Assembly (NCBI GenBank): GCA_965178125.1
Contig: OZ237760.1
Coordinates: 744,001 to 808,000, forward strand
Direction of reading: 5' to 3'
Origin: Bilabrum cf. latius
Taxonomy: Eukaryota
Length of the DNA: 64,000 nucleotides
The notes beneath the pieces were generated by a model. That model saw only the letters and a program-made list of their open reading frames with translations. It ran no database searches and was not told the origin of the DNA. A program made the translations under genes and the position numbers. This document shows, in pieces, positions 12,685 through 61,204 of this stretch (its first letter is position 1; the number at the start of each line of letters is the position of its first letter).

Positions 12685-14845
12685 TCACCCCATCGCCTCC
12701 TCCAGCAGCTTCACACACTCCTCATGCCCGCCCAATCGAGCCGCCTCCAAAGCGGTCACCTCGTCTCCCGCCCCGTCCACCTTGCCCCGTACCACCAGCG
12801 CGCCCGCCAGCTTGCCCAGCCTGAGCCTCCTGGCCAGCTCCAGAGGCCTGCCCTCGCTGGCCACCGCCCACGCCAGGCCCCTGTCCTGCAGGGCCCGGCC
12901 CGCGTGCCTCCAGCGCACGATGGCCCTGTGTCTGGGCGAAGCAGCCAGCGCCATGCCGCGCCTCCACCCACTCGTCACACCACTCCAGGGCAGGTGCTCC
13001 TCCAGGCACCGCAGCACGGCAGCCGTCACTGCTGGGCCCCTGGCTTCGACCTCCGTGAGGGCTTTGTGCAGCGCACTGCAGCACCGCGCGACGGTCGCGT
13101 CCTCACCGGACGCCCACCCAGACACCACGGCTTTTTCCAGCCGCGCGTTCTCTAGTGACTCTGCAAGGGCATGCGCTCGCAGGGCAGCCATGATCTGCTT
13201 GCGGTTGTCCCTACCGCGCTGAGCTTTCTTTTCCTTGGAATCAGCTCGTCCTCCTTCCTGTCCCTGTCCCTTTCCCGAGCTAGGACCAGCGGGACTGTCG
13301 GGCGACCTACTGCCGTCTATATCCAAGTAGACGTCTATGCCAGACAACGCGCGATTCTTCACCATGTCTTTTCCAGAGGCCGGCCCCCGCACGTCGTACG
13401 GCACCATGACGAGCCCGGCCTCCCGCAGCGGCTTTCCGGCCTCTTTCTCTTTCCTTATGAGCTGTTCCAGGTATTCGGCGAAGTCCGACCTCCATGACGG
13501 CAAGCCGGTCCGGGCGGGCCTGTCTGCAAGCGCGCTCTAGGGCTGTAGCAGGAGGGCGAGCACGGCGGGGTTGCAACCGGCGTTCCTCCTCATGACGTAA
13601 TCGAGCGGCGCCTTGCCTGTGTCGTTGATCGCGCCAAAATCAGCGCCGTAGTCTGCGAGTAGCTGAAGAATGCTCGTCCCCCGTATTTCGGCCATGTGCA
13701 CGTCTGAGTTGCAGCACACGAAGTGTGCGGCCGTCCATCCCCGAGAATTGCTTGCCCGAGCACTTGCTCCATGTGCGAGCAGCAACCGGGCCAGCGGTTC
13801 GTGTGCCTCGGCGGTGCAGGCGTGGAGAGGCGGCGATCCGTCCTGCAAGCAAAATACTAAGTGGAGAGTGATGCAAGCTTCCGATGCACGCATGCAGTCA
13901 GCGAGCGAGGTACGCAGCGACTGTTGGCATGACGTCTGGCTGAGACTCGCACAATCGCGGCTCTCACTATACCCTTGGCGTTTGGATCCGCACCGGCATC
14001 GAGCAGCTCCTTCACGATGACTAGCGCAGTATCCAGCGTATGCACACCAGCGGGAGATTTGTTCGACGAGAGTCCCTTCCGAGAGGCGCGGGTGCGACCG
14101 ACGGCAAGCAGAGCGGCGCTGCCAGCCGTCTCAGCGGGCTTTATGCAATCGAATCCATCGGACTCCCCTGGGCGGTAGTGCCCTGTTGCTAGTTGCAGCT
14201 GGACTTCGACTGCCTGTTTCGTGATCCAGCGCGGCTGTTTATCCCCGGGAATCACGCAGGCCGTCCATCGAGCACCTCGGTGGTAGCTCTTCGGAATAGC
14301 CGCTGTTACGGGCGCACCAAGGCGGGGATCAGCTCCTAACTCTAGTAGAGTACGTACCATTGCAAGATCTTGGCGGAGGGAAGCCAGTTCTAGGCAGTAT
14401 CCGTGAATTGGCTGCGTTCTTGAGATAGGACACCTTGGGAGGGGATCAACTCGCATTGCAGAGGTAAACCGCGATAGTCTCATATATTTTCTTCGTGGCT
14501 CACGAACTATCTTGTAATTGAGCCTCTAGGAACATTGCAGTCCGATCCCGCGCCGACTAGCTTTTGCAGCAGCTTCGTGAGACCCAATTGAACACCAATT
14601 TCAATTAGTGTAGGATAGTCTGGGCACCCAGCAGGAAATGCGCAGGACCGTAGAGCGCTTGCTTGTATCGTCAAATCAAGAGGAATGTTGCGCGCTCGAA
14701 GCATTCCAAGCATGGTCTCCGTGGTAGCGTCATCACCGGATGCGGCGGACTGGATCGCTTTCTCAAACAAACTGTTGACGAGACGGCGGGTGTCGGTTTC
14801 CTTCGCGGTGTAGTACTCGCTAGAATCAAATGACCAAGATGACAT
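12685..14845 (-). CDS. Ankyrin-repeat protein (paralog A)
   Basis: ATG 14845, introns 14503-14412 and 13967-13843. Repeats TLLELGADP, LLDAGADPNAK, GWTAAHFVC, GKAPLDY. TAG at 14507 and 13537; TGA 12685. The 3' ~235 bp is near-identical to paralog B. Confidence 0.75.
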
Positions 14846-14963
14846 ATCGTTGCAAATCACAGGAATGAGCATCTTGGGTCATGCCGCACCAGTTCTCATT
14901 CCGGGTTGCTGTGTCCGCTTGGCGGCACTTGATGAAACCCCCGGGCCTGAATCCATCGCATCA

Positions 14964-17900: not shown

Positions 17901-20900
17901 CAGGGGCGCGTGCGACCCGTCGCACAGCACCACCAGATCGTCGCTGCCCGACGACGCGCCCGCGGCCTTCCCGCCAGCACCGGTGGGAGCTTCACTTTCT
18001 GCCTCTTTCTCTTCTTCCGACACCCCCGCGGCACGCAGCAGCTGTTCCACGTCCTCGGCGCCCCGCTCCGCCGCCTCCCTCCTGTGGGCATCATCCGTGG
18101 CAGACTCGCCGCTCGAGAGCCTCCCGCGGATCCTCCCCGCGTACCCTCCGAATCCCTGGGACATCATGTAGACGGCCAGCTGGACCATGTACTGCTCGGC
18201 AGCGGGGTCTGCCAGCTCCAGCACTGCCTGGGAAGAGGCGATCGTGGACAGCATGGCCACTCTCAGCTCGGGGCTGCGGTCCACAGTAGCAGCCGCGGGA
18301 CCGCCGTTGCCCAGGATGCGCAGCAGGCCAGTGAACACGCCGCGGGTGCCGTCCTGGAGCGCCTGCAGCGCGTCCTTCTCGGACTGCTTGGGCAGCAATG
18401 CCTGCAGTCGCAGCTACAGGCCGCCCGATCCGTCGCCGGCACCCTCTGCCGCAGCATCGACCAGCCCGCCCGCCGTGATGGCCACGAGCAGCCTGCCAGT
18501 CACAGCAAGCAGATTGTCGCGATTGGCCACCGACACTCCGCAGATTGTGGCCGCCTTGCGCACGGCCTTGGCCACTGCCTCCGTGCCGCCGGCCTCAACC
18601 ACCGCCGCCTGCGCCTGCCCGAGCACCCTCGTCACACCCTGCAGCACCCGCGCCACGCCCGCACCCGCACCAGCGGCCACGTCCGCCCCTGCACCCGCGC
18701 CGGCACCGGCCGCCTGTAGCACGTCCCCGAGCCTTGCCGCGGCTTTAAGAGCCAGCAAGGCTGGGGAGGCCGACTTGCACGCGGCTGCCAGGGCCGCCAT
18801 CCTCCGGACCATCTTCCAGCCCAGCGGCCTCTTGAGGCAGGCGGTCTGCTTCATGGTGCTAGCCATGTACATGGCGTACAGGCCCTGCACGGCGTGGGTG
18901 TTGGCCACGCTCGCGTTGATCACTGCTGCCTGGCACGCCACGTACGGCTCGATGCCGGCCAGCATGATCACAGGGTCATATCGTTTCCCGGCCTTGCTGC
19001 CCTTGCGGGACCGCAGGAGCTGGCCCACCTGCGGTGCGGCCAGCCACAGGCGCGCGCTGGCACGGGGACCTGCCTCCTCCTCCCCGTCCCCGTCCTCGTC
19101 CAAGCCCGCTGTGCCCTCCAGCTGCGCCACGACGCCCGCCTTGTTCTCTTGATCCGACTGGGCTTTGGCCACCTCGGCGCCCTCCTCGTCCTCTTCGTCT
19201 CCGTCGCCGTCGCCTCCATGGGCAGCACCGCCTTCTAGGAGGAGGTGTCGTGCAGGGCGCCTCGCGTGCCTTCCGGAGAAGAACGCGGCAACGGTCTCGA
19301 TGACCATGCCCTGCCGACGGAAGAGCTGCACCAACGCACGCTCGGCCAGCAGCGGCAGCGGCCTCGCTGTGTTCTCAATCAGCCCTAGCTTCATCGCGTG
19401 CATGGCCTCTGGAATATCCCCGCTCGGGCGTGCCACGATGCTGGCAGTCCAGCCGGCCACGGCGCCCTCTGCAAACAGAGCCTGGGCAAGCACACCCGCA
19501 GCGTCGGCAGTGCGGTCAGCCGAACGGAGCATGCGGGCTGCCGCTGCACGAGAGTCCAGGCACCAGGGCTGGCCCGCGGCATCGGTCTGCGCGGCCGCGA
19601 GCCACTCCTCGCAGGGAACTCCGGGGCGTGCGGCGCCGCTGGTGCACGCGACAAACACCCGCTTCGAGGTGGAGTCCGGCGCCCTCTTCCCAGTGACCGC
19701 GATGGCGTTCAGCGCCTGCAGCTGTGCATCGCCCTTGTACCTCCGGCGGCCCCTCTTGCTCATGCTGCGGAACAGCAGGCCCGCAAGCGAGCGCGCCACG
19801 CGCTGGCTCCTCGAGACCTGTGCCAGGCCCGGGGCGGCATCCAGAGAGGCTGGCAGGATGGCCAGGCCGGGCCCGGGGCTGCCCTCCCGCGGCACCACTG
19901 CGGCCTGCCTTCCCTAGGTGTATGCCACGCACGCGGCGAGGGTGCCTACCAGCAGGTGCCTGGCAGACGGCGCGGCGCCTGCCTCGCCGCCGCTGCTGCT
20001 GCCGCTGCTGCTGCCCAGCGCGGACAAGAGTTCCTCGGCGGCGGTTTCGCCCAGCACGTCGCTGGCGGTAAGGCCTTGGCCTTCCTCCAGCGAGGTGCTG
20101 GTCGGCATGCCCACGTCAAGGCAGGCAGCGCGCGCAGCCCGCAGCGCCGAGCCTACGGTGCGCAGTGGCTTGCCGTCCTTGCCCACCGCCGATGGTGCGG
20201 GCATCAGCAGGTGCAGCCCAGCCGCGGCCTGCAGCGAGGGAGGCAGCAGGGCACGGGCGGATTCAAGCGACGCCTGCCCGTCGGCCTCAGCGAGATAGGG
20301 CTCCAGCGGGGAATGGTCTCCGCCCTTGCCGCACCAGTCGGGCAAGAGTCCAGACCCGCCCTGCAGCACGGCCTGCGTCAGGCAGATGGCCGCCTCCCAC
20401 CAGTTCGGGTCACCCGCTTCACCCTGGCTGTGGATGCCGCCAGCACCGGACTCGCCGGCCAGCGCCTGCAGCGAGGCGACGGGCCTGCCCCTCGCTGTTC
20501 CCTGGGATAGAGCCAGCGCGGCCATGGCGGCCAGTGTGGGCCGCAGGCACTCTGCTAGGCAGGCCCTGGCGAGCTGCAGAGCCTCGGCCCCGGGAAGCCT
20601 CCACAAGGGATCCGCATCGGCCCAGACCGGCGAGAGACCCCAGGTGCACCACAGAGCGCCCTGGCTCCACCGGGCGGCGGTCACGCTCCGCACGCAGCCC
20701 GCCTCGGTCGTGCACAGCGAAGTCAGCGTCGTCCGCAGCAGCCGCGCTCCGGCGGCACGCACGGCCGGCGACTCCCGCTGCCCATCGGTTTTCACCGCAG
20801 CACCACTAGCCGTGCACGCGCCCCCCGTGCGGGTGGCTGCCGCAGCCAGTGCGAGGAGGGCCTGCCCCAGCCCACTCGAGGCGAGGGCCTCGCTGCCCAG

Positions 20901-23900
20901 GCCCCTGGCGAGACCTGCAGCCAGGCGGAGCCGCCACGCTGCCACGAGCGGAGTCACCGCTCGGTCCCGTGCCGCCTTGCTGCTGCTGCTGCTGCTGCCC
21001 GCACCTTCACCGTCTTCCATCGGCACAGAGGCACCCCCAGAGCGGCCCAGCTCGGCTGCGGCCCTGGCCTTCGGTCCGCTGCTCGCTGCTTCCCGCAGCC
21101 CGGCGAGAGCCGAGGCCGCGCTGCGGCCCCACTCGCCGCACGCTGCCGCCAGCGGACCGCTCGTCCCCGCGATCCCATCGGCCCTGTCGTCCGCTGTCTC
21201 GTCTCCGCTGCGCACGCCGGGCCAGGTAGTATCACCGCACAGCACGGCGGGGCCCAGCACCCGCGCCGCCTCCCTGGGACAGGTCCTTGCGGCTCGCATG
21301 ACCGCCTGTGCCACCTCGTCCACGCTCACCAGAGGGCTCTGCACAGCGAGCCACTCGGCCAGCCGCCGCAGCAGGCCCTTGCGGAGCTCCGGGCCAGCCT
21401 GCTCGAACACGGGACCCACCAGAGCCCCGACGCCTAGGCCGCCCAGCACGCCCGCCAGACCTCCCGCAGTGGCCGGGGCCACCGTCGCCTCCTTGCCCAT
21501 GGGGAACCCCTTGCTGGCGCTCCACACGGCGGTCCCGGACTTGACCCCGGTCGGCTCCCCCAGCCCCATCTTCGCCTCAAAGTCGTCGGCCGAGGGCCTG
21601 GCCGTGCCCGAAGAGCCGCCCTCGTCCAGCCCCAGCGGACCCCCGCCCACCCCCGCGCTCTCCGCCTGCTCCAGTGCCCTCAGGCTCGCGTCCAGCACGC
21701 CCTCGGCCCATCTGCACAGGCGCGGGGTGGACGCCCAGCACTCGCGGAGCAGCTCCGTGGCCCGCTCGGAGGACACCTCCTCGCACCAGAGGGCCGCGGT
21801 GCCCGGCCGCGGGCTTGTTCCCTGGGACAGCAGCTCCTTCAGGAAGGCCTCCCTGCCTGCAGCGGCCTGCCCCCCCGTGCGGAGGACAGCCCGGAGGGGG
21901 TGCCTCTCTGGGAGCATCCCCGCAGCGGCTGCCCCGCTGGCCAGGACCTTGTCGGGGCCCTCCCCTTGTTCCCTGAGCCCGGGGTGCGTCAGGCCCTCCG
22001 ACTCCGCCACGGGGTCCGCCGCTCCTCCCGCGCCGACTGAGCCGCCGCCCGCGCCCGATGCGGCCGCCCCCGATGCCGCGCTGCCTCCCGCCATCGCGTC
22101 CACCGTGGTTGCGTCCACCAGGGGGAGCAGCCGCAGGGCGGCCGCGGCCAGCGAGGCAGCAGCCCGTGTCTTGGCCGGGTCCGAGGGGTCCAGACCGGGG
22201 AGAGAGGCCTCTAGGATGCCCGCCACAAAGGGGGCCGCGTGGGGCACAGGGAACAAGAGGGGGGCGAGGCACATGGCCAGAGCGTACATGGCGGGGGCGG
22301 CCTCGCTGGACCGATCCACGGCCTCGGGGGACAGCGCGTCGGCGCATTGGGGCAGCAGCACCTCTGCCACGGCCCCGGGGCACAGCAGGGCCATGTCTCT
22401 CATGGCCCTGCACGCGTCCATCCGAGCGTGCGCCGAGGGGGAGAACAGGAGCAGGCGGCACGGGCGCAGCATCATGTGCACTTGTGCCCGGACCGCGGAC
22501 GGCGTCACGCCCACCCCCGGCCCCGCGCCTGCGCTGCCACCGGGCAGCATCCCTTGCAGACCTTCATCTGTGAGCAGCCCCGCCGCATGCCTGCCCACCT
22601 GCTTGCCCACCGCTTCTGCCAGGCTGTTGGCCATGTAGGACAGTGCCTTGGCGACGTGCGGATTGCCACCATTGAGGGGGAAACAGGCCGCGTCCACCCG
22701 CCTGTACATGCGTGCGAAGGAGCCCAACACCGAGCGGCCCCCCGCCTCCTCAGGCGCAGGCACCAGGGCCAGCGCGCCCTCGGCGTCACCCGGCAGCGCA
22801 ATCCCAACATCACCCTCCAGCGAGCCGTCAGCATCTTCCGACTGCATCTTCGCCTGGCCACCCACCCCCCCCGCAGCATCAGCATCCGCTCCCACGCCCA
22901 GGTGCCGGATGGAGCTCAAGAGGCACACGAGCTGGTAGGCCGCCTGGTGGTGCCCCACACCGATGGCTCGGCACAGCACTGCTGCCGTGGAGCCGTCCAG
23001 GGCGTTGTCCGTCTCCCTCGCTGCGCGGTTCAGGTGACCCCCCCCGTTGGCCACCCCCAGCCTGATCTGCAGCCTGAGAGACGCGAAGGGGACGAGCTGG
23101 CCCCACTCCGCGGGGAGCATACCCGTCCAGCCGGCCGGCACCCCGTCTGCCGGGACCGATCCGCTCGTCACACCATCGCCGAGCAGGTTCAGCCTGGCGG
23201 CGTGGTCCGCGGCAGCGATCGAGTCCAGCAGACCGCCGACGAGCGCGTCGGCCTCCGAGCACGTGACGAGTGTGGCGCTGCGGGCCCACGCGCGGGCCAG
23301 GCGGCGCACGTTGGCGGCACCCACGTCAGCTGACGTGGCACGGTCAGGGTGGGACGCGAACAGCATGACGAGTGCGGTGGTTCCGGCACGGCCCGCCCGT
23401 GTGACGAGCGGGAGCATGGTGTTCCACAGCGGCCCCGCTTGAGATGCGGGCACGAATGAGCTCATGGCCATGAGCAGCTTGATGGCGGACTTGCCGTGCG
23501 AGGCCAGGACTGCGTACGGCTCCGCTACGTGGAAGCGCCTCAGGTGCGTGTCGCACAGCTCGAGGAGGGCAGGCCTCCAGTCCATGGCGAGCAGGGCCGG
23601 GCCCGCGGCCTGTGCGTCGGAGCGACCCAGGTGCTTGGCCAGCGCTTCCATGATCCGCGCGTGCTGCGCAATGGAGGCCCGTGCTTTGCGGGAGGAGAAG
23701 GCGGCGGCGTGGAGAGCGAGCGCGACCTGCTGCCAGAGCTCGAGGTCCACGGCGTACTGCAGCTTGTGCATCTCTTCCTGCGCAAATGTGAATAATTTAC
23801 AAGCGCAGGTAGTCGCGAGTTTGGAGTGTGTTCGGTGCGAAAACGACGAGGCGATCGTCTCTCGCGGAAGATTGGCAGCAGAACAATGGCTGAGAGTTTC

Positions 23901-26175: not shown

Positions 26176-28218
26176 ATGAGACGAGGCTTGATGTTGACAG
26201 TGGTAATAACTTACCTGCTAGCCAGCTTTACTAGGTCACAAGTTACGATTGACCCCACAGTGGCTCGATTTGTAGAGCAGGCACGCACTTCAGTTAGCGC
26301 GATCGCGACAGAAGCGAAGCGGCTGTACGACAATCGGTGCGACGCGCAGTGCTCTGAATGCGTTATTAATGCCTGCAGGTCTGGCTTTCGCGGGCAGCCC
26401 GAGGACGAGCAGTGCTTGCTGCAATTCTCGACGTCTTCAGTATGCCCGGCTCCCGGCCAGACGCTGCTGCCCGACGTGTCCGCTGTCCGGATTGCCGAAG
26501 GGGTAGAGCTAGACCCATCCGTAGATGCGGGCGCTTTGGAAGACGCTTGCACGTACAGCGACCTCTCGTCGACCTTCCAGAGCAACTTCAACGCCCTGCC
26601 TGACGTCCGCTGGCAGTACTTTGCGACCGTGCAGGGCGTGCATAGGACCTATCCAGCCAAGCTCTGGAGCATCAGCGGCGAGGACACGTGCAACCCGTAT
26701 GACCCGCGCCGCCGCCCGTGGTTCGTGTCCGCCGCGTCGGGCCCGAAGAACGTGATTTTGCTGCTCGACGACAGCAGCAGCATGGGCATCGTTGACGAGG
26801 GCGAGTCCAAGCAGAGGATGCAGCTCGCAGCAGAGGCGGCAGCAGACGTTCTCTCCACACTCACGTCGAGCGATTTCTTCGCTGTGCTCCGTTTCTCGGA
26901 CCGGATCACCTCCTGGAGCACCGAGGGGACCACTGGCATGGTGCGGGCCACGGATGCTCACCGCGCCGCCGCGCTGGCCTGGGTGAGGGACACGAGGCCG
27001 CAGGGGTCCAGGACCTCATTTGCGATGGGGATTCAAGAGGCCGTGAGGCAGCTGGACGAGGCCATCGCCAACGATTTCGAGAATACTCGTCACACCAACT
27101 GCCTGAGCACCGTCGTGATGCTCACAGACGGCCAGGCCCAGGACGGTGACGGGGCCGTGGAGGCCGCCGCGCAATTGCGGAACCGGGACCCGCAGACCAT
27201 CCTATTCACCTACTCGTTCGGGGAGTCCGCCGCGGCGCAGGACCGCGACAACATCGGGAAGCAGATGGCCTGCGCAGGGGGCGGCCTCTGGCTGGGCGTG
27301 CCCGGCAGCAGCTCGCTGGCCAGCGCCATGTCGCAGTACTACCAGTTCGTGGCCGGGCTGCAGGCGGATCGCTCGGGTGCTATTGTGTGGTCCGACTTGA
27401 TTATCGACGCCAGTGGGCTGGGCCTGTCGGTGGTTGCAACCGCACCCGTGTACTCGGACGACGGCGTGCTGGTGGGGGTGGCGGGGACGGACCTCGCCAT
27501 TGACGACCTGGGTGGAGACAGCGCGAACCTGAATCTGCTGACGTTTCTCAGGGACAGGTCCAGCCAGTGCGCGGCCGTTGTTCCCTCAGAATGCCTGCTC
27601 CAGCGGCTCCGTCAGGCCGCGGCCCGGCGTGTTGGAGGCAGGAACATGCAGGACAGCAGCATCTGCTCCTTCTCCACCAATGCATCCCACCCCCTCTACG
27701 CGCCGGCTCTGGACAACTGCACCGCGGCAGGGAACAGCACAGGCACTGGCAGCGCCGCTGGGTGCCCCGACGGCCGCCCAAGGGCCCGCCTGTGCCCCGG
27801 CGAGGACATCAACCTCGAGCTGTTCAAGCAGGGGGCCTGCTGCGGCGAGCCCAAGGACGAGAATGAGCTGCCGGTGGCCGTGGTGGTGGTGGTGGTGGTG
27901 GTGTGCGCGCTGGTGGTGGCAGTGGCGGTTTGGGGCTGGTGCGCGGGCTGGTGCGAGGGCGAGGGCGACGGCAGCGCGCATCCAAGAGGGCGGGGCAACG
28001 GGAAGGTGTCACCTAGAACCGCGGCTGCGATGCAGCACGTGTCGGGGGGACGCATGGTCGCTGATGACCCGAGGCACGGCGGTTCCAACCAGCCAGGGGG
28101 AGGTGGCCAGCCCGGGTACCAGGGGCAGAGCCAGAGCCAGAGCCAGCAGGGACCTGGGTTTGGGGTATCTAGCAGTAGCGGGGCCCAGTGGAGTGACGGA
28201 CACTAGGGGTATGCCTAA
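26176..28218 (+). CDS. VWA + Cache-domain type I membrane protein (calcium channel alpha2-delta / CACHD1-like)
   Basis: Signal peptide, WQYFAT, YDPRRRPWFVSAASGPKNVILLLDDSSSM, MLTDG, LVGVAGTD and a poly-Val TM segment. TAG at 28204, then GYA and TAA 28216-28218. Confidence 0.85.
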
Positions 28219-31457: not shown

Positions 31458-34400
31458 TCAGTCGTCTGCCGCGGACATCCATTCCACTGCATCCCTAGCA
31501 CGCTGCAATGTATCGATGTCCCTAATTTCACTAGTCCAGGTGCTCGCGATACTGGTCAGCTTTCCCATGGGGCGACGAAGCGCTTGCCGAACGCTTTGCT
31601 GCACCCAAGCGGCCATTCCGTCGCCGGACCCGACCGTCCCCACTAGCGCCCAGGCGTCCTGCACCAGCCGGCCGCACGGTCCAGTCCGCCCAGCGCCGAG
31701 CACTTGCGCGCGAGCGAGCAATTTGGCGGCGGCGCCCCGCTGCAGCACGGCGAGCCGCTCCCAACCGGCGCCCGCGGAGGGTCCAAGCGCCGACTGCCGC
31801 GCCTGGCGGATTGCATCCGCGCCACCCCGCGCGCTCGCCGCCCCACCTCCAGCCCCACCCCCATCATTTGCTCCTCCGGCTCGCAGAAAGGCCTCGGCCA
31901 GCCCCGTGTCCAGCAGCGCCTGCACCCATCGCCGACCACCAACCGCCTCCTGGATGCTGGCACGGGGCTCAGCACGAGGCCGGGCATGAGGCTCGCCAGC
32001 AGTGGCACGGGGCTCAGCACGAGGCCGGGCATGAGGCTCGCCAGCAGTGGCACGGGGCTCAGCACGAGGCCGGGCATGAGGCTCGCCAGCAGTGGCACGG
32101 GGCTCAGCACGAGGCCGGGCATGAGGCTCGCCAGCAGTGGCACGGGGCTCAGCACGAGGCCGGGCATGAGGCTCGCCAGCAGTGGCACGGGGCTCAGCAC
32201 GAGGCCGGGCATGAGGCTCGCCAGCAGTGGCACGGGGCTCAGCACGAGGCCGGGCATGAGGCTCGCCAGCAGTGGCACGGGGCACTGGGGGGTGCGCCTC
32301 TGTGGGTGCAGGAGCTCCAGCCCCCGAGGATGGTTGTTCGCTGGAGCTCAGCGAACCTTCGCTGGGTCCTGTCCCCGGGCTGTGCGCCGCCTTGTCCGCT
32401 CCCGCCTCGAGAAGGCGATCGGACGCTTCCTGGGCCCGCACTGCAATGCGGTGCAGCTCCGCCGCTGGCCCGGGGCACACAGCGAGCAGCAGCCCCCACG
32501 CGACTTCCTCTTTCTCCTCCTCGCTACCATCTTCATCTTCGTTACCGTCTCCTCGACCCATCGAAAGCGCGGTCGTCGCAGCAGCAACCCCACGGCGGCG
32601 AGGCGACAGGAACAGGGCGCCGCCGTCCGCACTCGTCACACTAGATGCCCCCACCAACGCCCCCTGCCCGCTGCCACTCGCTCCTGCCGCCAGCTGCAGA
32701 AGCGGAACCAGCGCATGCGCGGCGCCGGCGGCATCCGCAGCCAGCGCCCCGAGCCCTGCGCTCACCTGTCGAGCCAACGCACCGCTTTGTGCCCCTGCCT
32801 CTGCCTCACCCGCAGAGCCTCTATCCCCTGCAGCATCAGCCACCGCGGCGGGACCCATGGAAAGAGCCTCGGCGAGCGCCCGGGCGACGGCCCCTGCCAC
32901 GGCCGCGGCTGCCTGTGCCTGCGCACCGCCCTCTGTGGGCAGCGCCGCCAGCCCGAGTCGGGCCACGTCCTCCGATGTGGCCCGGAGCTCCTGCAGCCAC
33001 GCTGCCGGTTCCGCTACCCCACGCAGCAAATGCGCGGCGCCCGCCTCGCCACCGCCGGCATCGCTTCCACTGCCGGTCGATTGCTTCGCAGCTCTCGCAA
33101 CGGCTGCCCGGATGCGGACGAACGCGCGGGGGATCTGGCGGCGGAGTCGGGTCACAGCGCGGTGAAGACGAGGCAGCAGCAACAGGGCCGCGGCGCCGCG
33201 CATTGCGGAACTTGCGGCTTGGATCGGGGCTGCCACGTGAAAGCCCCCCGCCGGACCCACCCGCGCACCCGGGAAGCCACCCTGGGGTGCACTCGCCACA
33301 CCTCCCTACGGTCCCGCATCGACGGATGTCTCAGGCAGGAGGGTCCACGCAGCCACGCCTCCCCCGCTGCTGCCTCCCGCAAACTCCAGCCACCTCTTGG
33401 CAATCGTCACACTGTCCCCGCTGATCGCAACCCCTCCGCTCCCAGCTGCACTGGCCCCGCTGCCGCCAGTGCCAGTGCCAGTGCCAGTGCCAGCGGTAGT
33501 AGCTATTGTTCCCTGGTGGGAGCCCACCCGCTCCAGCGCCGCCAGGGATGCTCGCCCCAGGGATGCATCGCACTGCAGCACGCGGGCCGCCAGCTGCAGC
33601 TGCAGCTTCGCTCGAGCCTCTTGCCCCTGCCCCTGCCCCTGCCCCGTCCCTGCCACGCCTGCGCCAGGCCCAGCATCAAGCGGCAGCAGTGGGAGCCCGC
33701 GCACCAGCAGCCGTGCCGTCATTGCGGAACATGCTGCCGCGCACCCTTCCGCCGCGAGGGACGCGCCCAGCCACGGAGAGAACGCGCAGGAAGCGCGCAT
33801 CGTGCGGGCGGCCGGGCCCAGGTCACTCGTCACACTTGAGCAGCGCGCGAGCATCGGGATCCACGGATTGCCGCCAGCGCCACGGTCGCCAGCGGCTGAG
33901 CTGGCTCCAATATCGCCCCCAGTGTCCCCATCCCCGCCGCTCTCCGAGTCTGGGCTGCCCACCTGCATCAGCGCGCGGGGCAGCTCGGTGGCTTCGAAAA
34001 TCGATTCCGGGTCCATGTCCAGCCCCGCGCCGGCTCCACCCCTCGGTCCCCCCGGAGGAGCGCCGCTCGCGGCCTGCAGCCGAGTCACCGGCCCCTGACC
34101 CTTCCACTCCTCCCCTGCCTCCGCGCGTCCTCCCTCCTCCCCCTCCTCCCCCTTCTCCTACTACTGCTCCCTCCCCCTCCTGCCAGCTGCAGCCCCGGCC
34201 GCACCCATGGCAGCACCCTCTCGCACCAACGAGAGCACCCTTGACAGTCCCTCTAGCGGCGGCCCAGCCTCAGCGGGCCACGCCGAGACAGACTGCAGCA
34301 GCTCAGCACCCAGTGCCCTGCCCAGGGCGGCCACCTGGGCGTAGGCGGGGGCACTGGCGCCCGACGATGATGACGATGACGTGGACGACGGGGCGAACGG

Positions 34401-44924: not shown

Positions 44925-45385
44925 GGCGTGTGACGAGTGAGAGAGTTGCACGCAGCGCTGTGCCGTGGCCCCGATCCATGGAATTCGAGCTGCCGGAGTG
45001 GTTGCCGCGAGGGGATGCCACCTATTGGGACACTGAAGAAGAGGGGGGGAGGAGAGTGACTGGTTCTGATCTTGATCTTGATCTTGGGCTGGGCAAAAGT
45101 GCGGGCCCTGCTGTCGGTGGGGTAGTTGAGGGCTGCGCGCAGATTAGACAAGAGATAGAGAGAAGAAGAGGCAGACAGGAGTGTTCCTGCGATGGTTGCA
45201 TCAATGCGGCGAGAGAACGAAGGCGCGCGAAGGAGGAGTTTGGGCCACGGGGCTGCTTGGCTTTCAATGGCGTGGCACATGCACGATGATTGGTTTTGGT
45301 GTCGGTTGGAGAGCATGTTCAGTTTATGATTCTAGTCACAGCACGCATTACTATCGCACGCCGCGCGACCGCGCACTCAATGAAC

Positions 45386-48300: not shown

Positions 48301-50842
48301 CAGTTCCAAGCCCAGCCCACCCGCGTAGCCTCGCCGCCTCCTCCTCGTCCGCCACGCCCTTCTGCAGACGATCGGTCTATGCACCAGCCAGCAGCGGGTG
48401 CGCGGGTCCTATAGGCTGCCGCGCATGGTGGCCAACAACGTCGCCCCCGCCAGCACCAAAGCTGCCGAGAGCTTCCATCCCGCCGGCGCCCCCCGCCCCA
48501 TCGCTGGAGCTCTCGCTGGTGCTGGACAGTACCGGCACGCCTGCCCTGGTGGGTTGGCGCGAAGGCACCGGCAAGGCAGCAGCACTGTTCCCTCGACCCG
48601 GAGTGGAAACAGGCGAGCGACTCGAAGGTGTGACGAGTGCGGCAGGCACCCTCGGTAGGATGTTTCGGATGGCCACCCCTGCCCTGCCCCTCGAGTCCAG
48701 CAGCAGGGGATGGTCGCACAGCCGAAGGAGGGCGGAGAGGACCACCAGCGCGTCGTGCTGGCCACCTCTGTTCTTCCTTGCATCACCTTTGCCCTGAACT
48801 CTAGTAGCACCATCCGTCCTGCCGCGCCAGCCCTCCCCGTCCTCTTCTTCGTCCTCTTCCTCCTCCTCGGGCACCAGCGCTGCTCTCGCCTCTGGGCTGC
48901 TGAGGAACGCGCGGTACAGCGCCAGCTGCACGCTGGAGGGACGGCACCAGAGAACAAGCTCCTTCTTGTGCGGCTGCGGAAGAGCCGGGGGAATAACGCT
49001 TCCTGACCTCCCCGCGGAACCGTCTCCAGACACCCCGGAACCACCGCTCGCAGCTGCGCTCGCGCCCTCCTTCTCGCCCTCCAGAGCAGCGGACCCCGGC
49101 CCCGCCACCCTCACGTCGCTCATTCCCCCGGGCCCTTTCTCCCTCCGCAGCATGTGCGGGGCAAGCACCGCCCTCAGCGCCTGGGAAGCCCTCGCCCCCC
49201 TCGCTCTCTGGGTGTCACTGGCCCGCGCGTCCCTCGCCCTCTCGAGGGGCCCCGCCACACGATCCAGGAACCACTTGCGGGGGCCCAGCAGCTCGCCCGG
49301 GCAGGCCAGGTCCACCAGGGCCCAGAGCTCGTCGGTGCGATTCTGCAGAGGGGTGCCCGTGAGGAGGAGCCGCCTGCGGGCGGGGAGTGCCCTGAGCGCC
49401 TTAGCTGTCTTGGTGGAGGGGTTCTTGGCAGCGTGAGCCTCGTCACAGATGACCCAGTCGAATCCCATGCTCGGCGTCAGGGGTGGGGTCCTCCCGACCG
49501 GGGAACGACCTGGTCTTCTTCTTTCTTTCCTCTTCGCGCCCTGAGATTGCGACGTGTCGCTGTCGCCATGTGAGTCGTTTTCCGATTCCGATCCCGAATC
49601 CGACCCGCTCTTGTCGTCGCTGGAGTCACCATCAGACTCGGATCCACTGGACGAATTGGGCGAGGAGGAAGAGGCGCAGGTAGACGATGACGACGAATCA
49701 GACCCAACAGCTGCTAGCGCTGCTGAGGCCCGTCTTCCACGCTTCCCTTCTCCTTTCCTATTCCCGCTTGAACCCCTGTCTCCTCCTGCCCGTGCCCCGC
49801 TACGAACCACAGCAATACCACCGCCGCTGCTGCCCCCACCCCAGCGCTGCTCAAACCCATCGTGACCCGGCACCAGCCCCCTCTTCCACTCCTTGCGCTC
49901 CCCCACTGGCGGCCCCGTGAGGAACCGATCCGCCATTTCACGGAGCTCCTCGATCCTCGTGCTCACAGTCCCGTAGGTGGTCACCAGCACGCCGCCCTTG
50001 CTTGCCACCTGCCGGAGCGCCTTGCGCGCCGCCCCCGCTGCCCCGTGGTAGATGGCCACCCGCACCCCGGGCGCCCACTGCCTGATCTCCTTCGCCCAAT
50101 TGTCCACAAGGGACAGCGGGGCCACCACCACGCAGGCCCGGGCCCGCCTAGACCGGAACAAGCCCCCGAGGAAGGCGGCCACCTGCACGGTCTTGCCCAG
50201 GCCCATCTCGTCGGCCAGGATGCCGCCAGCCCCGCCGGGCAGTGGCACGTGGAAGGGCAGCACGGGGGCGGGGGCGGGGGCGGTTATGCCTGCTCCTGAG
50301 GCATCCCCGCCGCTGCCTTCCTCGCTACCACGGTCTGGGTCGCCATCACTGCCGGCTTCATCGCGCGCTGTTCGAGCTCCAAGGGATCTGTGCTCGCCTC
50401 TGGCTCGGAGCAAGTGCCTGGCCTCTGCGAGCATCGCACGGAGCCATCGATTGCAGGGACAGCCTGTGGGCTGCGCCAGGTGCAAGCGCCAGAGCCAAGC
50501 GATGCCGTCACGCTGGAACGGGTGCAGTTTTCCAAATATACCGGCTGAAACTTCCAATCCTCCGGGCAGCGCGAAGCTGTCCGCCGGGGCGCCCGAGTCT
50601 GCAGATGACTCAGAGCAATCGGAGTCTTCGTATACGATCTTCTCCCATCGGAATGAACCGCGTGCCATCGCAACCATCGACATCAACCTCTGCGCAGCCG
50701 GCGAGGATCTCGTGGATAGCTGCAGCTCTAGCCGCTTGAGTGCATCATCAAACTTATTGCCAGTGCCTTGCGATGATGCGCTCTTTGATGCAAGCAAGGA
50801 AGCTATTTTCCCGGCGCCAACTGAGGGCAGTCGGACCTGCAT
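45386..50842 (-). CDS. SNF2-family helicase, ERCC6/ERCC6L(PICH)-like
   Basis: LHPFQRDGIAWLW, GGILADEMGLGKTVQ, DEAH, LLTGTPLQN, SSKMGAL, LLVFSRSIRLLD, RIDGSV, DPAWNPAVDAQAADRCFRIGQTRDVVVYRL. TAG at 48377, 47957, 47813, 47768, 46925, 46094 and 45548; TGA 45386. Start uncertain. Confidence 0.88.
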
Positions 50843-55662: not shown

Positions 55663-55696
55663 TTGAATGCATCGGACATAGCTAGTGTTGTACGTT

Positions 55697-58273
55697 TCAG
55701 TCCCTCCCAGGCCTTGCCATGGGGAACTTGTCCACCACGGCAGCTGCCTCTCCCTCCACGACCACCTGGGCCCGAAGCAGCTCCACTGCGCCCTGTGCCC
55801 GCGCCTGTTCCACATGCTGGGCGGCGGCTTCCTCCCCTGCCATCTCGGGCACGGCCATGGTGTTGGTGGTGAACACGATCTCGTACTCCCCGGGGGCCGA
55901 CAGCACGTCCCCAGTGCGGGGGTGCACCACCCTGAGGGACCCCTGGTCCACGCTGAAGGTCACCTGCTTGGACCCGCCAGCAGGCACGAACACCTTGTCG
56001 TGCCCGAACAGCTCCAGTCGGAGGGGGTAGTCCGCCATCTCGGGGGCGGCCAGTGCCTTGGGCTTCCACATGGCCAGCACAACGACAGAGCTGGACACAG
56101 AGCCCGTGTTGGACACGGTCACGGTATACTGGGTGGCGGGGGCGCTGGGCAAAGCGGCTGGCATGCGCAGAGGCGCGGGCGGCTCCGGATTCCAGCTCAT
56201 CTTGAATGTGGTGTAGCTGAGTCCGGCCCCGAAGGGGTACACGACAGGCCCGTCGAAGTACCTGTAGGTCCTACCAGGGGCGCAGCCCATGCACATGCTG
56301 GTCATGTTCACCTCGTTCGTGTAGTTGGCGTGATACATAGTGAAAGGCAGCCGGCCCGCGGGGCTGTGGTCCCCGAACAGCACGTCAGCCACGCCCCTGC
56401 CCCCGTGGTACCCCGGGTAGAAGCTCTCCAGGATGGCGGGGGCACTGGCCTTCTCCGCGCTGATGTCAACCACACCTCCGTTGAGGAACACCACCACGGT
56501 GCTGGGCTGCACCGCCAGCACTGCCTGCACGAGATCGTGCTGCACGCCCGGCAGCTCGATGTCCTTGCGGTCGAGGCTCTCGCCCTCGATGCTCTGGTCG
56601 ATGCCCATCACCAGCACCGCCACGTCGGCCGACTTGGCGGCCCCCACAGCTGCAGCAAAGCCGCTCTTGTCCTGTGAGTTGACGTCGCATCCCTTCTCGT
56701 ACTGGGTGCTGCCCCCCGCATTGGCGGCCTTGATGGCTTCCTGCACGGTCTGGATGCAGGAGAGGTCGTCCCACTAGTCCCCCGGGCACAGCTGGCCCAG
56801 GTACGACGCCACCAGGGCGGTCTCGCTGTCCGCGTTGGGCCCGATGACCGCCACCCGCTGGCCCTTCTTGAGAGGCAGCAGCCCCCCCTGGTTCTTGAGC
56901 AGGACCGAGGCCTGTCTCGAGGTCTCCAGGGCCAGGGCCTGCGAGCTGTTCTTCCCGAACTCGCTGGTGGAGTAGTTCCAGTAGGGCTGGTCCTCCACGG
57001 GATCGAAGAGACCCAGCCGCACCCTCACTTCCATGGCGTGCTGCAGGGCAAGGTCCACGTCCGATTGCGCGCACTCCCCGTTGGCCACACCCTGCGCGAG
57101 ACTCTCCCAGTACACGGCCCCGCTGTCGATGTCGCAGTGCCCGTCCTTGACGGCCACGCACGAGGCCTACGAGGCGGTGGGGACGTACTTGTGCTGGCTG
57201 TAAATGTCCAGAATCGCGCTGGAATCGGAAGTCTGGTAGCCCTGGAAGCCCCACTCGTCACGAAGGACGTGCCTCAGCTCTGCGCTTGCGCTGGTGGGCA
57301 CGCAGGTCGTGTTCTCCGAGTCGATGAAGGCAACCGCGTTGTAGGACGACATGATGCTGGCCGCCTTGGCGTCCTGCACGGCTTTCTTGAACATGGGGAA
57401 ATAGGTGGCTCCCAGGTCATAGTCGGACACCCTGGCGCAGAAATCGTACCTCGTGTACCCGTCGCTGTCCTCGAGTGAGTATGCCACCCAGTGCTTGAGC
57501 GTGGCCACTGCCCTGAGGAACCGAGGGTCCTCCCCCTCCTGGACCCCCTTGGTGTAGGCCACCGCGTAGTCGGACAGCAGCAGCGGGTCCTCGCTCACGA
57601 CCTCCTGGGAGCGGCCCCACCTAGGGTCCCTGGGCTGGTTGATGGTGGGGCTCCACGTGTCGAGGCCAGCGGGGGGCCTCCCGCTCCACGAGTTGGCCTC
57701 GGGGCAGCCGGTGAGGTAGGCGACGCGGGTCTCCACGCCGATGACGTCTCCCATGGCCCGCCACATGGACTGGTTGAACGAGGCGCCCAGTGCGTTGGGC
57801 ATCGCGAAGCTGGTGGCGCAGCGGTTGTCAATGCACAGCGTCTGCACCCCGTGCAGCGAGTTTTGGCCTGCGGACAGAGTCATCATACACGAGCATGGGC
57901 GGGACCGTACCAGAGCGCACGTATCGCGTTATAGGCCAACTTAAATGCGTGCTTCCGTTGAGCCTCCTCGCCTGTCAGCTTCCTTACCCTTGTCCAGCGC
58001 TGGCACCCCTGCCTTGGGGATCCCCTGGATGTTGCCGCGCGGCCAGCCCCGGGCCGTAAGTAGCTACGGCTTGAGATCATTGTCTGCTTGCGCGACCACA
58101 GCTTTCGCCCTCTCTGATACCGATAGCTTCGTGTTGCAAAAGTCGTACTGATCGAAGCCAGGGCGGCAGGCCCTCGAGCTAAGCACCCCGGACCGGTTCG
58201 GATGGAACGGTGGCTCGATCATTGCGGTGCCGTAGCCCAGTATGATCGTGGTAATCGCGATGGCCAGCTTCAT
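55697..58273 (-). CDS. Glycoside hydrolase family 3, beta-xylosidase-like, secreted
   Basis: Signal peptide, NSLHGV, WSPTINQPRDPRWGRSQEVVSEDP, TLKHW, YQTSD, EGESLDR, PAGRLPFT, YPFGAGLSYTTF. Intron 57987-57868; TAG at 58064, 57167 and 56774; TGA stop. Confidence 0.92.
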
Positions 58274-58516
58274 CTGCAATACTAGTAAGTGTGTTGAGTT
58301 CACAATTAGATCGCCGTGCTACGGCTCGCGATACGCTTTGCTGAGCTTCGTCGAGCTCACAATGGCCGTGAAAATAGTATCAATATAGCAAGAAAAACGA
58401 TGCTGGCGCGCGTAGCGAGGCAAAGTGGAGCGGAGCGACGCCGAGAGAGCAGGCTCGCGGCTCCGAATGACAATAGCCAGCGGTCTACACCTTGCCTGCC
58501 TATGGACTGCACGCGC

Positions 58517-61204
58517 TCATTGGACAACACCACCGGGACCCGCGGCGAGCTCCTGGTCTTGGCAGGTATCCAGCGCCACCGGCTTCCCATCCGGGGTCGT
58601 AATAGTCACCGACAGCACCTCTGCCTCGCCGGTGCCGCTTCGGTCCTCGGCGGATCCAGCGAGACCGTCGCCCAGGTCAGGCTGCGCGCCGCCGAGGTAG
58701 AGGGTGTGCGTGCCGGGCACGATCCACCTGTTGCCCTTGGGGTCCACCCCCGCCATCTGGAAGGGAGTCACTTCGAAGGAAACCGACTCCTGTCCCCCCG
58801 CCGGCACAGTGCGTCGCGCGAAGCCAGCCAGGCTCAGGCGGGGCGCCCTCACACTCGTCACACCAGATGGAGCGGCAGACCCGTCCTAGCCCCCAAAGGA
58901 AGGGCTCTTCAGGTACAGCTGCAGCACCGCGTCAGCACCAGTGGCCGCCCCATTGGTCGCGCTGGCTTGCACCCGGATTCGGCCGCACGCACCCACGCTG
59001 GAGGCGGCCTCTGTCTACACGGCAGCTGGGTGCTCCTGTTCCTGTTCCTGTTCTCTGCCACTGCCCCCACTGGACGGCACGACGCTCGCCTCGTACTTCC
59101 ACTGCCCCGCATAGTCCAGGCCGTACCCAAACCCGAACAGCACCTTCTGCGTGCCGTCCTGCGCCAGGAACCGCAGGGTCCTTCCTGCCACCCCATAGTC
59201 CTCAAAGGCAGGGAGGGAGGAGGACGACTCGAACACTGTGTAGGGCATGCGGCCAGCAGGGGAGGACTCTCCCGACAGCATAGAGGCGAGAGCGGCACCC
59301 GCTGCTGGGCCCGGGTAGAACATGTCCAGGATGGCGTCGGCGCTGCTGGTCACGTTGGTCACCGAGACCGCACCGCCGTTCAGCACCACGAGCACCACGG
59401 GCGTGCCCTTGGGAGCTGCCGCCTGCAGGCGAATGAACAGATCCTGCTGGCACCCGGGGAGACCTATCACGTCCCTGTAGTCGCCCTCGCACGGGTACCC
59501 GTCGGTCCAGTTGGTGCTCTGGGAGCCCCTGTCAGCCCCCTCCCGCTCGATGGTAGTGCCGTCAAGCCCGCCCACCACCACGATGGCGCTGGCGCCTCTG
59601 GCCGCCTGCACCGCGGCATCGAACCCCGACGTGTTCTGGCACCGCGCATCGGGGCACGTCTCCACAAACTGCACGCTGGACTCCCCCCATGCGGCCTGCA
59701 GACCCTGCAGGGGGGTGGACTCCTGGGTGGCGGTGAAGGCCGCGTACGTCCCCCCGTACAGAACCGTGGAGCGGTTGGCGTTCGGGCCAACGACGAGCAC
59801 ATTCGTGCGCTGAGAGGGGGATAGGGGCAGCGCCAAGGACCCGCTGCCCGCATCAGAGCGCCCGGAGGGTCCGCTCGTGGCTCTGTTCTGCAGCAGCACC
59901 GTGCTCTCGATGGCTGCCCGCAGGGTGAGCGCGGCGTGCTCCTTGCTCCCGATGACATCCGGGCCCACGAAGCTCCAGGGAACAACGTCCGGGGGGTCGT
60001 CCGCCCCTGTCTTGAACCGCACCCTGAGCACCCTCTCGAGCGCATTATCCACGCGGGCCATCGTCAGGTTGCCTGCCTGCACCAGGCCGGGTATGTACTC
60101 CTGGAATATGCTCTTGCCGTAGTTCCACGAGCCCCCCTTCTGCTTGGGAGGCCCGCCCGAGGTCATGTCCTGGTCCAGGAATGCGCTGGCGGCGAGTCGC
60201 GCGGCGTCCTTGTACGAGGCAGCGTAATGCTGACCCGTGTACAGAAGTGGCACTCCCATGTTGTCGCTGAACGCGACCCCCTGGAACCCCCACCGGTTCT
60301 TGAGCGTGTCGTTGACCAGCCACGCGTTCGCATTGTCAGGGATGCCTTTGCCTCCATCCAGCGCTATCCCAGAGTAAGCCACCATCACGGACTCGACCCC
60401 GCCCTGCTGCACCGCGGCGTGGAAGGCCTCCAGGAAGAGCTGCTCCGCGTCGGCGCTCGTCGTGCTCGCCTCAAAGGCGGTGCGGATGGAGTCGGGGCCG
60501 GAGTGCACGCCATACATGTTCACGCCGGACGACATGAGCACGTAATGGGTCTCGCCCACGCCCTCCAGCAGACGGGAGCGGGCTTCACTTGGGAGCCGAG
60601 CGAGCAACGCGGATCCAGCGGGCGAGCGCAGCACCGGCTGGTCCCCGCGCAGGCCCTCCAGATGAGCAGAGGACATCTGTCCCGTCAAAAACGGAGATTC
60701 GCCCCAGGTTCGCTTGATTCTGCCCCAGCGAGGGTCCCGGACGACGTTCTCGGTAGGCCCGAAGCAATGAAGCCCGCTCATCATGTGCCCGAAGATCCCC
60801 TGCCGGCTGGCGTTGTTGAACGCGGCCCGGCCCTCAAGCCCTGCTGCAAAGCCAACGTCGCGGATCAGCTCGGGGTCGAATGTGGCGCCGAGGCCGATCA
60901 CGTGGGGGAAGATCGTAGCGTGGCCGTCCCAGCCGCTTCCTTCCCAGTCCGTGCCCGTAAACCCCCAGCCGTGGCAGCATTCGCTCCTCCAGTTGTACGG
61001 GTTCCAGTCAAGTCTTTCGACAGCGGGTGACATGCTCACGAGCTGGTGCGCCTTTTCATCCAGCGTGAGCCTGCCGACAAGATCGGATGCTCTTGCTTCC
61101 GGCGAGAGGTGCCAGTCTTGAAAGGGGTACTTCGGGGGCAATGCTGCGCTTGCAGCGTAAATGAATGCCCATGTACCAGCGATTGCATGGGTCAGTAGCA
61201 TCAT
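58517..61204 (-). CDS. Glycoside hydrolase family 3 with a C-terminal Fn3-like domain, secreted
   Basis: RASDLVGRLTLDEK, ATIFPHVIGLGATFDPEL, RDPRWGR, WGFQGVAFSD, SPAGRMPYT, FGFGYGL, VLQLYL, LAGFAR. TAG at 59015 and 58886; TGA 58517. Confidence 0.9.

Follow-up and report, generated by a model that had tools for sequence, protein, structure and literature searches.

An over-represented exact 12-base word within protein-coding genes of a GC-rich protist

GTGTGACGAGTG is an exact 12-base word that occurs 11 times in the window (the whole stretch of DNA analysed here, 64 kb in length), where 0.01 copies are expected. This over-representation, about 1000-fold relative to chance, is seen in both orientations and within protein-coding genes of a GC-rich protist. 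The enrichment is accompanied by conservation at the nucleotide level, unrelated flanks, independence of orientation, restriction to few reading frames and an unbroken frame across the copies. We propose, with a probability of roughly 45%, that GTGTGACGAGTG is a putative recognition word on duplex DNA, retained where the protein tolerates the peptide it encodes.

All 11 exact copies listed in an earlier reading of the letters alone (hereafter, the sequence-only reading) were recovered at their positions, and its estimate of about 0.01 expected copies is matched by 100 dinucleotide shuffles, with a mean of 0.01 and a maximum of 1 exact copy. Markov models of order 1 to 5 predict 0.007 to 0.086 exact copies; orders 6 and 7 predict 1.1 and 8.9, values that are higher because these models are trained on sub-words of GTGTGACGAGTG itself. 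The match spectrum is sharp, with 11 exact, 8 one-mismatch and 7 two-mismatch sites (26 sites with up to two mismatches, compared with 5.8 expected). Near copies had also been listed, and eight of them are indeed one-mismatch copies, the one given at 4170 mapping to 4169. The three given at 23263, 37208 and 57252 have two mismatches and map to 23261, 37206 and 57252; they retain the 10-mer GTGACGAGTG, and the one at 57252, translated as RDEW within a conserved block of GH3, could match by chance. GTGTGACGAGTG is the sole dispersed over-represented word of the window, the other top k-mers being tandem arrays. A contig of a relative, 3.4 kb long, lacks the word, a result that carries no weight.

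The word is not palindromic; its reverse complement, CACTCGTCACAC, can be parsed as CACTC-GT-CACAC, with two CACNC half-sites. It begins with GT and includes TGA, the sole stop codon. When the word is masked, the flanks (±250 nt) carry no information beyond a G at position -1, present in 11 of the 19 exact and one-mismatch copies, and nothing aligns in register. The flanks had been described as different and a repeat family with common flanks named as a refutation, and no such family emerges. A transposon end, a miniature element (MITE) or an excision footprint was rejected, with no common terminal repeats or flanks, no target-site duplication and no full element.

Because about 80% of the window is ORF, copies of the word must sit in translated sequence, and 18 of the 19 exact and one-mismatch copies lie inside ORFs. 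The six exact copies on the minus strand are all sense. They are found at 12969..12980 in an ankyrin ORF (12685-14130, G-V-T-S); at 32630..32641 (S-V-T-S), 33824..33835 (S-V-T-S) and 35942..35953 (G-V-T-S, about 13 residues before a weak COG5_C match) in a COG5-like ORF (31458-37292); at 39595..39606 in a low-complexity ORF with no Pfam family (38696-42244, S-V-T-S); and at 58852..58863 in a glycoside hydrolase family 3 (GH3) ORF (58517-61207, G-V-T-S), within an Fn3-like domain match. Four of the five plus-strand copies are antisense: 34965..34976 and 36303..36314 in the COG5-like ORF and 41306..41317 in ORF 38696-42244, where the gene reads H-S-S-H each time, and 48628..48639 in a SNF2-family helicase ORF (45386-51049), where it reads L-V-T in the linker after the LRLCDHPLLL block. 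The fifth, at 44928..44939, is the copy previously called intergenic; it lies outside any ORF, 4 nt after the TGA of the same-strand ORF 43491-44924, and the TGA inside this copy falls in the frame of that ORF.

Five one-mismatch copies are sense and on the minus strand: GTGTGACGAGGG at 18626..18637 (G-V-T-R) and GTGTGACGAGCG at 23162..23173 (G-V-T-S, the difference being synonymous) in a PSME4-like ORF (14964-24083), and GTGTGGCGAGTG at 33290..33301 (G-V-A-S), GTGTGACGATTG at 33401..33412 (S-V-T-I) and GTGCGACGAGTG at 35426..35437 (R-A-T-S) in the COG5-like ORF. The remaining three are antisense, comprising CTGTGACGAGTG at 4169..4180 (plus strand; ORF 3977-5968, gene H-S-S-Q), GTGTGACGAGCG at 23399..23410 (plus strand; PSME4-like ORF, gene L-V-T) and GTGTGACGAGTA at 27084..27095 (minus strand; VWA-domain ORF 26083-28245, gene T-R-H). 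The last is the lone copy in its frame and lies in a conserved domain, and may be a chance match.

Copies are unevenly spread over the genes. The COG5-like ORF makes up 11.5% of ORF length and holds 5 of the 10 exact and 8 of the 18 near-exact genic copies; the earlier statement that five exact copies lie in COG5 is thus true of this ORF, whose COG5 matches are weak (COG5_N, E = 0.0067; COG5_C, E = 0.0008; both below Pfam cut-offs). The CSE1, GH3a and ankyrin-kinase ORFs hold none. Genes rich in the word had been described as intron-poor, which is correct only once TAG is taken as a sense codon. In the genetic code used here, TAG encodes glutamine and no stop other than TGA is seen; spliceosomal introns start with GTGAGT or GTGAGG and end with YAG.

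The enrichment survives randomizations that respect coding constraints. The ORFs, 50,757 nt in total, hold 10 exact copies and 18 copies with at most one mismatch, whereas 0.07 and 0.85 are expected from synonymous-codon shuffles (200 replicates), and 0.0 and 0.12 from codon-order shuffles (200 replicates). A dicodon-preserving shuffle, under which the sequence-only reading had allowed that the excess might vanish, leaves it in place, with 0.175 exact copies and 0.93 copies with at most one mismatch expected (40 replicates). Six of the eight Val-Thr-Ser tripeptides are encoded by GTG ACG AGT, compared with 1.7% expected (AGT accounts for 8.6% of Ser codons), and all three HSSH peptides by CAC TCG TCA CAC. 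It is the nucleotides that are conserved rather than the peptide, and a protein sequence motif was rejected on these grounds: a single codon string underlies 6/8 VTS and 3/3 HSSH, and synonymous shuffling reduces the count to 0.07.

Frame use is strongly restricted. Over the five stop-free options, the 18 genic copies read VTS (11), CDE (0), HSSH (4), LVT (2) and TRH (1), the last an addition to the three translations already reported. All 11 sense copies occupy the same one of the two stop-free frames, an outcome with a probability of about 1 in 1000 if both were equally likely, and none of the 10 genic exact copies is in the stop frame. The best coding-potential frame is identical upstream and downstream of every genic copy. 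With respect to transcription, 11 copies are sense and 7 antisense (4 of them exact), not different from 1:1; along 46 kb the exact copies run -,-,-,+,-,+,-,+,+,+,- (5 plus, 6 minus), interleaved and with no visible polarity. Pfam matches cover only 1 of the 10 exact copies in genes, and the surroundings of the sites are GC-richer (P = 0.006) and of lower entropy (P = 0.05), although coding potential scored at the sites shows no significant drop relative to the rest (P = 0.33). The earlier proposal of a DNA-level word laid over exons withstands these comparisons, given the fixed codons, the unrelated flanks, the use of both orientations and the enrichment over codon-aware shuffles; no intron, frameshift or RNA structure goes with the word.

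Our data are therefore consistent with a word that would be read on duplex DNA. GTGTGACGAGTG, often with a preceding G, would be an asymmetric word recognized on double-stranded DNA regardless of the direction of transcription. The sharply peaked match spectrum points to a very specific reader, which we infer to be a protein (or guide) that binds the word; a 12-bp footprint would be compatible with about four zinc fingers or a tandem two-domain binder. Copies would persist where the peptide is harmless (Gly/Ser-Val-Thr-Ser, or His-Ser-Ser-His from the other strand). None uses the frame in which the word reads as the stop TGA or the one in which it forces Cys-Asp-Glu-Cys/Trp, and they accumulate in GC-rich, low-complexity, weakly conserved protein segments. 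What maintains them may be site-by-site selection or, alternatively, a drive based on sequence-biased repair or conversion. From the 64 kb examined, we assume that the word acts genome-wide. Several observations count against a duplex-DNA recognition word, including the coding-potential scores given above. Copies crowd into one ORF and are lacking in the CSE1, GH3a and ankyrin-kinase ORFs, a distribution at odds with a signal required at even intervals, and the match spectrum is equally expected from a recent burst followed by about 6% decay.

Such a burst is the core of the alternative that survives best, one that goes beyond the sequence-only interpretation and that we consider unlikely but well worth weighing: a mutational origin without function, in which breaks repeatedly received the 12-mer (or 9 bp with a 3-bp GTG duplication), perhaps as a repair patch copied from some abundant nucleic acid or as a highly uniform footprint left by excision. 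Insertions would survive in tolerant protein segments because 12 bp preserves the frame. The unit is indeed exactly four codons and never shifts the frame, the copies lie in low-complexity, indel-rich segments, and the ratio of exact, one-mismatch and two-mismatch sites fits the burst with its decay. In the GH3 protein, the loop around the copy exceeds that of the neighbouring paralog by 8 residues, and the segment with the word removed, APSVRAP, remains a good domain match; the ankyrin paralogs can also be aligned without the word, an ambiguous comparison. However, a PDB homolog aligns without gaps across the GH3 copy (VTSV versus VSSV). Target-site duplications are lacking, as are inverted repeats inside the word and, in the window, any element whose termini match. 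A footprint of two terminal repeats would have halves that are inverted copies; those of the word are not. Frame use is so uneven (11, 0, 4, 2, 1) that a selection filter would be needed anyway, and we know of no mechanism for inserting one fixed 12-mer.

Recognition at the RNA level, by an RNA-binding protein or a small RNA acting on mRNA stability, localisation or translation, is improbable. It would account for the 11 of 18 genic copies that are sense and share one reading frame, and for the copy directly past a stop codon, in a likely 3′ UTR. The seven antisense genic copies (four exact), which show no departure from 1:1, would then have to be incidental or act in antisense transcripts, and the other two sense frames, one containing a stop and one imposing Cys/Trp, also explain why a single frame is used. 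No common fold was detected, with z-scores of -1.7 to +1.7 over the 11 copies, and the window has no Rfam match at gathering score, so a structured RNA family was rejected despite a resemblance of the word to the hammerhead CUGANGA and box C RUGAUGA.

Adapter or linker oligos that had entered the assembly would also be exact, short, present in both orientations and set in unrelated flanks. Such an artefact is very improbable, given eight one-mismatch variants, the absence of all 10 genic exact copies from the stop frame and the gap-free homolog alignment across the GH3 copy; the word matches no adapter known to us. Sampled 31-mers of a 9.9-kb stretch with seven copies argue weakly in the same direction, being found at 0.99 in four runs of one sample, perhaps the source sample, and at 0.63 in a run labelled as another organism. 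Even less probable is a splice-site, introner-end or programmed-frameshift signal in ORFs that look continuous because stops are rare. The word does start with GT and contain the only stop codon, TGA, and long open frames occur on all strands of this GC-rich DNA. Yet the actual introns begin with GTGAGT or GTGAGG and end with YAG, the coding frame is unchanged across every genic copy, seven genic copies are antisense, the conserved GH3 domain resumes in the same frame 24 nt after the start of the word, and TGA, at 1% of positions, makes TGA-free ORFs of 1,100 to 3,000 codons impossible by chance. An intron boundary or introner, and a programmed frameshift or recoding, were each rejected on the uninterrupted frame, the former also on the antisense copies. 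Chance, base composition, codon bias or a favoured peptide is a negligible explanation even in a genome that is GC-rich and repetitive at the amino-acid level, as no shuffle exceeds 2 exact copies against the 10–11 observed and codon choice at VTS and HSSH is fixed.

The features of a putative recognition word are shared with over-represented genomic words of the Chi, DUS/USS or HIP1 type: an excess count, dispersed copies with unrelated flanks and restricted coding frames. The 12-mer DUS of Neisseria and the USS of Haemophilus are bacterial DNA uptake sequences that arise from biased competence uptake followed by recombination. Like them, GTGTGACGAGTG is a short, exact, asymmetric word at hundreds to thousands of times expectation, in both orientations and with unrelated flanks, often in genes, in few reading frames and less constrained protein parts, and with few degenerate copies relative to exact ones. 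Unlike them, it lies in a nuclear genome with spliceosomal introns, for which we know of no uptake pathway, and forms no terminator-like inverted pairs here. Chi, an 8-mer with a strong orientation bias relative to replication and a bacterial RecBCD machinery, is likewise an over-represented asymmetric word found about once per 5 kb and tolerated in coding DNA, but the strands of our word are interleaved. HIP1 (GCGATCGC) of cyanobacteria, also short, highly iterated and scattered through genes, is a palindromic 8-mer of debated function, for which a repair or methylation drive has been proposed; our word is non-palindromic. The analogy with these words is a resemblance in statistics and embedding, and the sequence-only interpretation that drew it is partly supported: its core of a DNA-level signal is supported, whereas the roles that it named, in chromatin, replication, recombination or methylation, are hypothetical.

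Among eukaryotic sites, the PRDM9 13-mer hotspot motif, the Tetrahymena 15-bp chromosome breakage sequence and the C. elegans 21U-RNA upstream (Ruby) motif are likewise words of defined sequence, 8 to 15 bp long, whose flanks are not conserved; a dedicated factor reads them, and they occur in either orientation. To our knowledge, none is concentrated in translated exons in restricted frames; moreover, hotspot motifs undergo erosion instead of accumulating, breakage sequences occur rarely and between genes, and Ruby motifs, which are degenerate, sit upstream of small-RNA units. The word shares a TGACG core with bZIP/CRE-type sites, which are 6 to 8 bp, degenerate and promoter-located, whereas it keeps all 12 positions and occurs in gene bodies; by location and degeneracy, with 18/19 copies in ORFs, a transcription-factor site was rejected.

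A more far-reaching and rather doubtful proposal is that GTGTGACGAGTG may be a eukaryotic nuclear ‘genomic word’ kept by sequence-biased drive or selection, a counterpart of the bacterial uptake, Chi and HIP1 words. As a 12-bp tag read by a dedicated factor on duplex DNA, it would spread wherever the proteome tolerates Gly/Ser-Val-Thr-Ser or His-Ser-Ser-His, shaping protein sequence, and might serve as a self-recognition or licensing mark or bias repair or gene conversion. A few bacterial systems are marked by exact short words that build up in coding DNA, and in each of them the word led the way to dedicated machinery; we know of no such word in translated exons of a eukaryotic nucleus, and a limited literature search found none. 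Should the word prove to have arisen by templated 12-bp insertion, the mechanism of mutation would be unusual and would deserve a description of its own. If it is genome-wide, it would offer a sharp, testable handle on a sequence-specific process acting on DNA in a little-known protist lineage with a variant genetic code, and a case of a DNA signal dictating short peptides across many proteins.

The 64-kb window, which was the scope of our word analysis, contains 11 exact copies of the 12-mer GTGTGACGAGTG, five on the plus strand and six on the minus strand, and all 11 had been placed correctly by the sequence-only reading that flagged the word. Dinucleotide shuffles yield a mean of 0.01 exact copies, and Markov models of order 1 to 5 predict 0.007 to 0.086. 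With up to two mismatches, 26 sites are present in the window against 5.8 expected; eight of them differ from the word at a single base, which leaves the two-mismatch class near chance level. A k-mer census of the window returned the 12-mer as its sole dispersed over-represented word, the remaining top-ranked 10- and 12-mers all deriving from tandem arrays (for example, seven 45-bp units at 31958-32283). One of four strings searched for occurs in 354 papers, and those listed look like primer or oligonucleotide uses; other literature searches listed nothing relevant.

Read with the standard code, conserved genes of the window are interrupted by in-frame TAG. One TAG of CSE1 aligns with a Gln of its homolog (LFPHF-TAG-TLI versus LFPSLQTIL) and further TAGs stand inside Gln-rich runs (such as QA-TAG-GQGQGQG); on this evidence TAG is most likely a sense codon for Gln, at 9497 and 9650 in CSE1 and at about 50 other in-frame sites. 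When TAG and TAA are both read as Gln, ORFs of 1,100 to 3,000 codons emerge, all ending in TGA, the terminator of 19/19 ORFs examined. As TGA occurs at 1% of positions, such long ORFs are not open by chance. In-frame TAA is rare and mostly near ORF starts, and its Gln reading is less settled than that of TAG. The genome, with 56-72% GC in the window, has a variant nuclear code. Spliceosomal introns in the window are of canonical type, starting with GTGAGT or GTGAGG and ending with YAG, for example in RPSA (about 30053-30267 and 30376-30507) and in the proteasome alpha gene (about 37336-37639). The ORF products include CSE1, two ankyrin proteins, PSME4-like, VWA and weakly COG5-like proteins, an SNF2 helicase, an ankyrin-kinase and two GH3 glycosidases, and a tRNA scan of the window found no genes. 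The PSME4, SNF2 and protein kinase domains (14964-24083, 45386-51049 and 52156-55872) are split by long in-frame inserts rich in Gly, Ala, Ser and Glu, and their ORFs reach 1.5 to 2 times the usual family length.

Several repeats accompany these genes. The 45-bp array (7.2 units, 100% identity) lies within the COG5-like ORF (31458-37292) and encodes a 15-residue repeat (PRATAGEPHARPRAE), and its perfect identity suggests that this coding low-complexity sequence expanded very recently. Other tandem arrays lie just past the VWA gene (28279-28435, 52 bp × 3, 100%) and inside the ankyrin-kinase ORF (53775-53937, 51 bp × 3.2, 94%; and 53300-53435, GTGCTG × 22.7, encoding an Ala-Gly run). The arms of a 359-nt inverted repeat (3460-3818 and 14209-14567, 94% complementary, 10.4 kb apart) flank CSE1 and both ankyrin genes. 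A lower-GC (56%) block at 60-2025 and 3135-3370 is built of units of ~600-680 bp that are 85-96% identical and include ankyrin-like fragments; it holds no copy of the 12-mer.

Searched against a protein database, the organism showed no near relative: for CSE1 the best match is 28% identical, and the proteasome alpha matches (56-70% identical) are spread over oomycetes, chytrids, animals and plants. UAR is read as Gln in Amoeboaphelidium, according to PMC5304391, which raised an aphelid source; this was rejected on composition, PMC10608142 giving those genomes about 40% GC versus 56-72% in the window. A chlorophyte-type TGTAA poly(A) signal was also rejected, as it follows only 3/19 ORF ends. 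Searching sequencing runs with the stretch returned seven rows from three studies, none recorded as RNA and three guessed to be RNA; runs containing 0.63 and 0.24 of the 31-mers point to relatives. From 148 pattern matches, a metagenome search for relatives confirmed one locus, 3,428 nt long and 64% identical across CSE1 residues 43-229. Allowing two mismatches, the 12-mer does not occur there, which says little at a density of one copy per 5.8 kb.

The excess resides in the nucleotides. In the 18 ORFs used for shuffling (50,757 nt in total; 10 exact copies, 18 with at most one mismatch), exchanging synonymous codons within genes, which leaves the proteins unchanged, left a mean of 0.07 exact copies and never more than 2 in 200 replicates, and shuffling codon order gave 0.0 (200 replicates). 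A dicodon-preserving shuffle gave 0.175 (largest 1; 40 replicates). Codon choice points the same way: 6/8 Val-Thr-Ser tripeptides in these ORFs are written GTG ACG AGT, for which codon usage predicts 1.7% because AGT makes up only 8.6% of Ser codons, and 3/3 His-Ser-Ser-His are written CAC TCG TCA CAC. An origin of the excess in composition, codon use or peptide is thereby ruled out; preservation is thus at the nucleotide level, and it imposes the peptides.

Of the 19 copies with at most one mismatch, 18 lie inside ORFs, 11 sense and 7 antisense to the gene; the exception, an exact plus-strand copy at 44928, begins 4 nt past a gene's TGA. All 11 sense copies use one frame, xGT GTG ACG AGT G, the two unused frames containing a TGA stop or imposing Cys-Asp-Glu-Cys/Trp, and the antisense copies read HSSH (four), LVT (two) or TRH (one). 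The COG5-like ORF, with 11.5% of ORF length, holds 5/10 exact and 8/18 near-exact genic copies (binomial, about 0.003 and 0.0004 before correction for a gene chosen after the fact). Sites are GC-richer (P = 0.006) and lower in protein entropy (P = 0.05), coding scores are not lower there than elsewhere (P = 0.33), and a single exact copy, in one of the GH3 glycosidases, falls inside a Pfam-matched stretch.

The copies share little beyond the word. A position-by-position logo over ±30 nt is flat save for G at -1 (11/19 copies), and the G-richness of flanks accompanies sense copies, not antisense ones, and so merely reflects coding-strand skew. When the word was masked, all-against-all blastn of the ±250-nt flanks found nothing in register, only physical overlaps of neighbouring windows, and neither target-site duplications nor an element with matching ends was found around the copies. 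Pairing the inverted copies 33824/34965, 35942/36303 and 39595/41306 as transposon ends was rejected, as they have no target-site duplications and unrelated interiors. Together with the shuffles, these results dispose of both objections that the sequence-only reading had anticipated, namely that the excess might vanish under a dicodon-preserving shuffle (0.175 expected versus 10 found) or that the copies might descend from one repeat family with shared flanks. Four further sites (23261, 36406, 37206 and 45898), all antisense to the gene, match the word just in its right-hand part, TGACGAGTG, and differ at the left end; they may be copies of greater age that have decayed, or may have arisen by chance.

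The main rival, which we consider unlikely, is that the 12-mer itself was repeatedly inserted by some templated repair process. The GH3 copy (58852, minus strand; ORF 58517-61207) bears on this in both directions: without the 12 bases the protein reads APSVRAP and fits the domain equally well, and the loop is 8 residues longer than that of the neighbouring paralog, whereas a solved GH3 homolog aligns across the copy without a gap (VTSV versus VSSV), suggesting that the word was written onto residues already present. The ankyrin copy (12969, minus strand; ORF 12685-14130) is alignable with or without an insertion, and near-identity of the paralogs does not start until some 60 nt past the word, which decides neither for a duplication junction nor for insertion. 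The neighbouring ankyrin genes are 95% identical at their 3′ ends (10867-11127 and 12667-12927; ~75 codons plus stop), about 60 nt downstream of that copy, and diverged further upstream, suggesting recent duplication or gene conversion. The match spectrum (11 exact, 8 one-mismatch, two-mismatch at chance) fits either a very specific reader holding sites or a burst of recent date whose copies have decayed by about 6%.

A function at the RNA level is improbable: the copies have no common fold (z-scores -1.7 to +1.7), Rfam gave no match in the window, and 7/18 genic copies are antisense. An artefact is more improbable again, and a splice or frameshift signal barely credible, since codon-usage log-odds favour one and the same frame on either side of each copy inside a gene, indicating neither splicing out nor a frame change. 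Chance, with shuffle expectations of 0.0-0.175 against 10 exact copies in ORFs, is negligible.

The core of the sequence-only reading, a DNA-level word laid over translated sequence regardless of the direction of transcription, is supported by shuffles, codons, flanks and the presence of both orientations. Comparison systems include DUS/USS, Chi, HIP1, PRDM9 motifs, the Tetrahymena breakage sequence and the C. elegans Ruby motif. In bacteria, uptake sequences and Chi sit in reading frames that tolerate them, within coding DNA under weak constraint, and the 12-mer would follow the same logic. Our preferred reading, tentatively held at a probability of about 0.45, is that a factor of high sequence specificity would recognise the word on duplex DNA. 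That copies cluster so strongly agrees better with build-up in tolerant places, by drive or under weak selection, than with a signal required at regular spacing; copies would persist or build up wherever the peptide that they impose does no harm.
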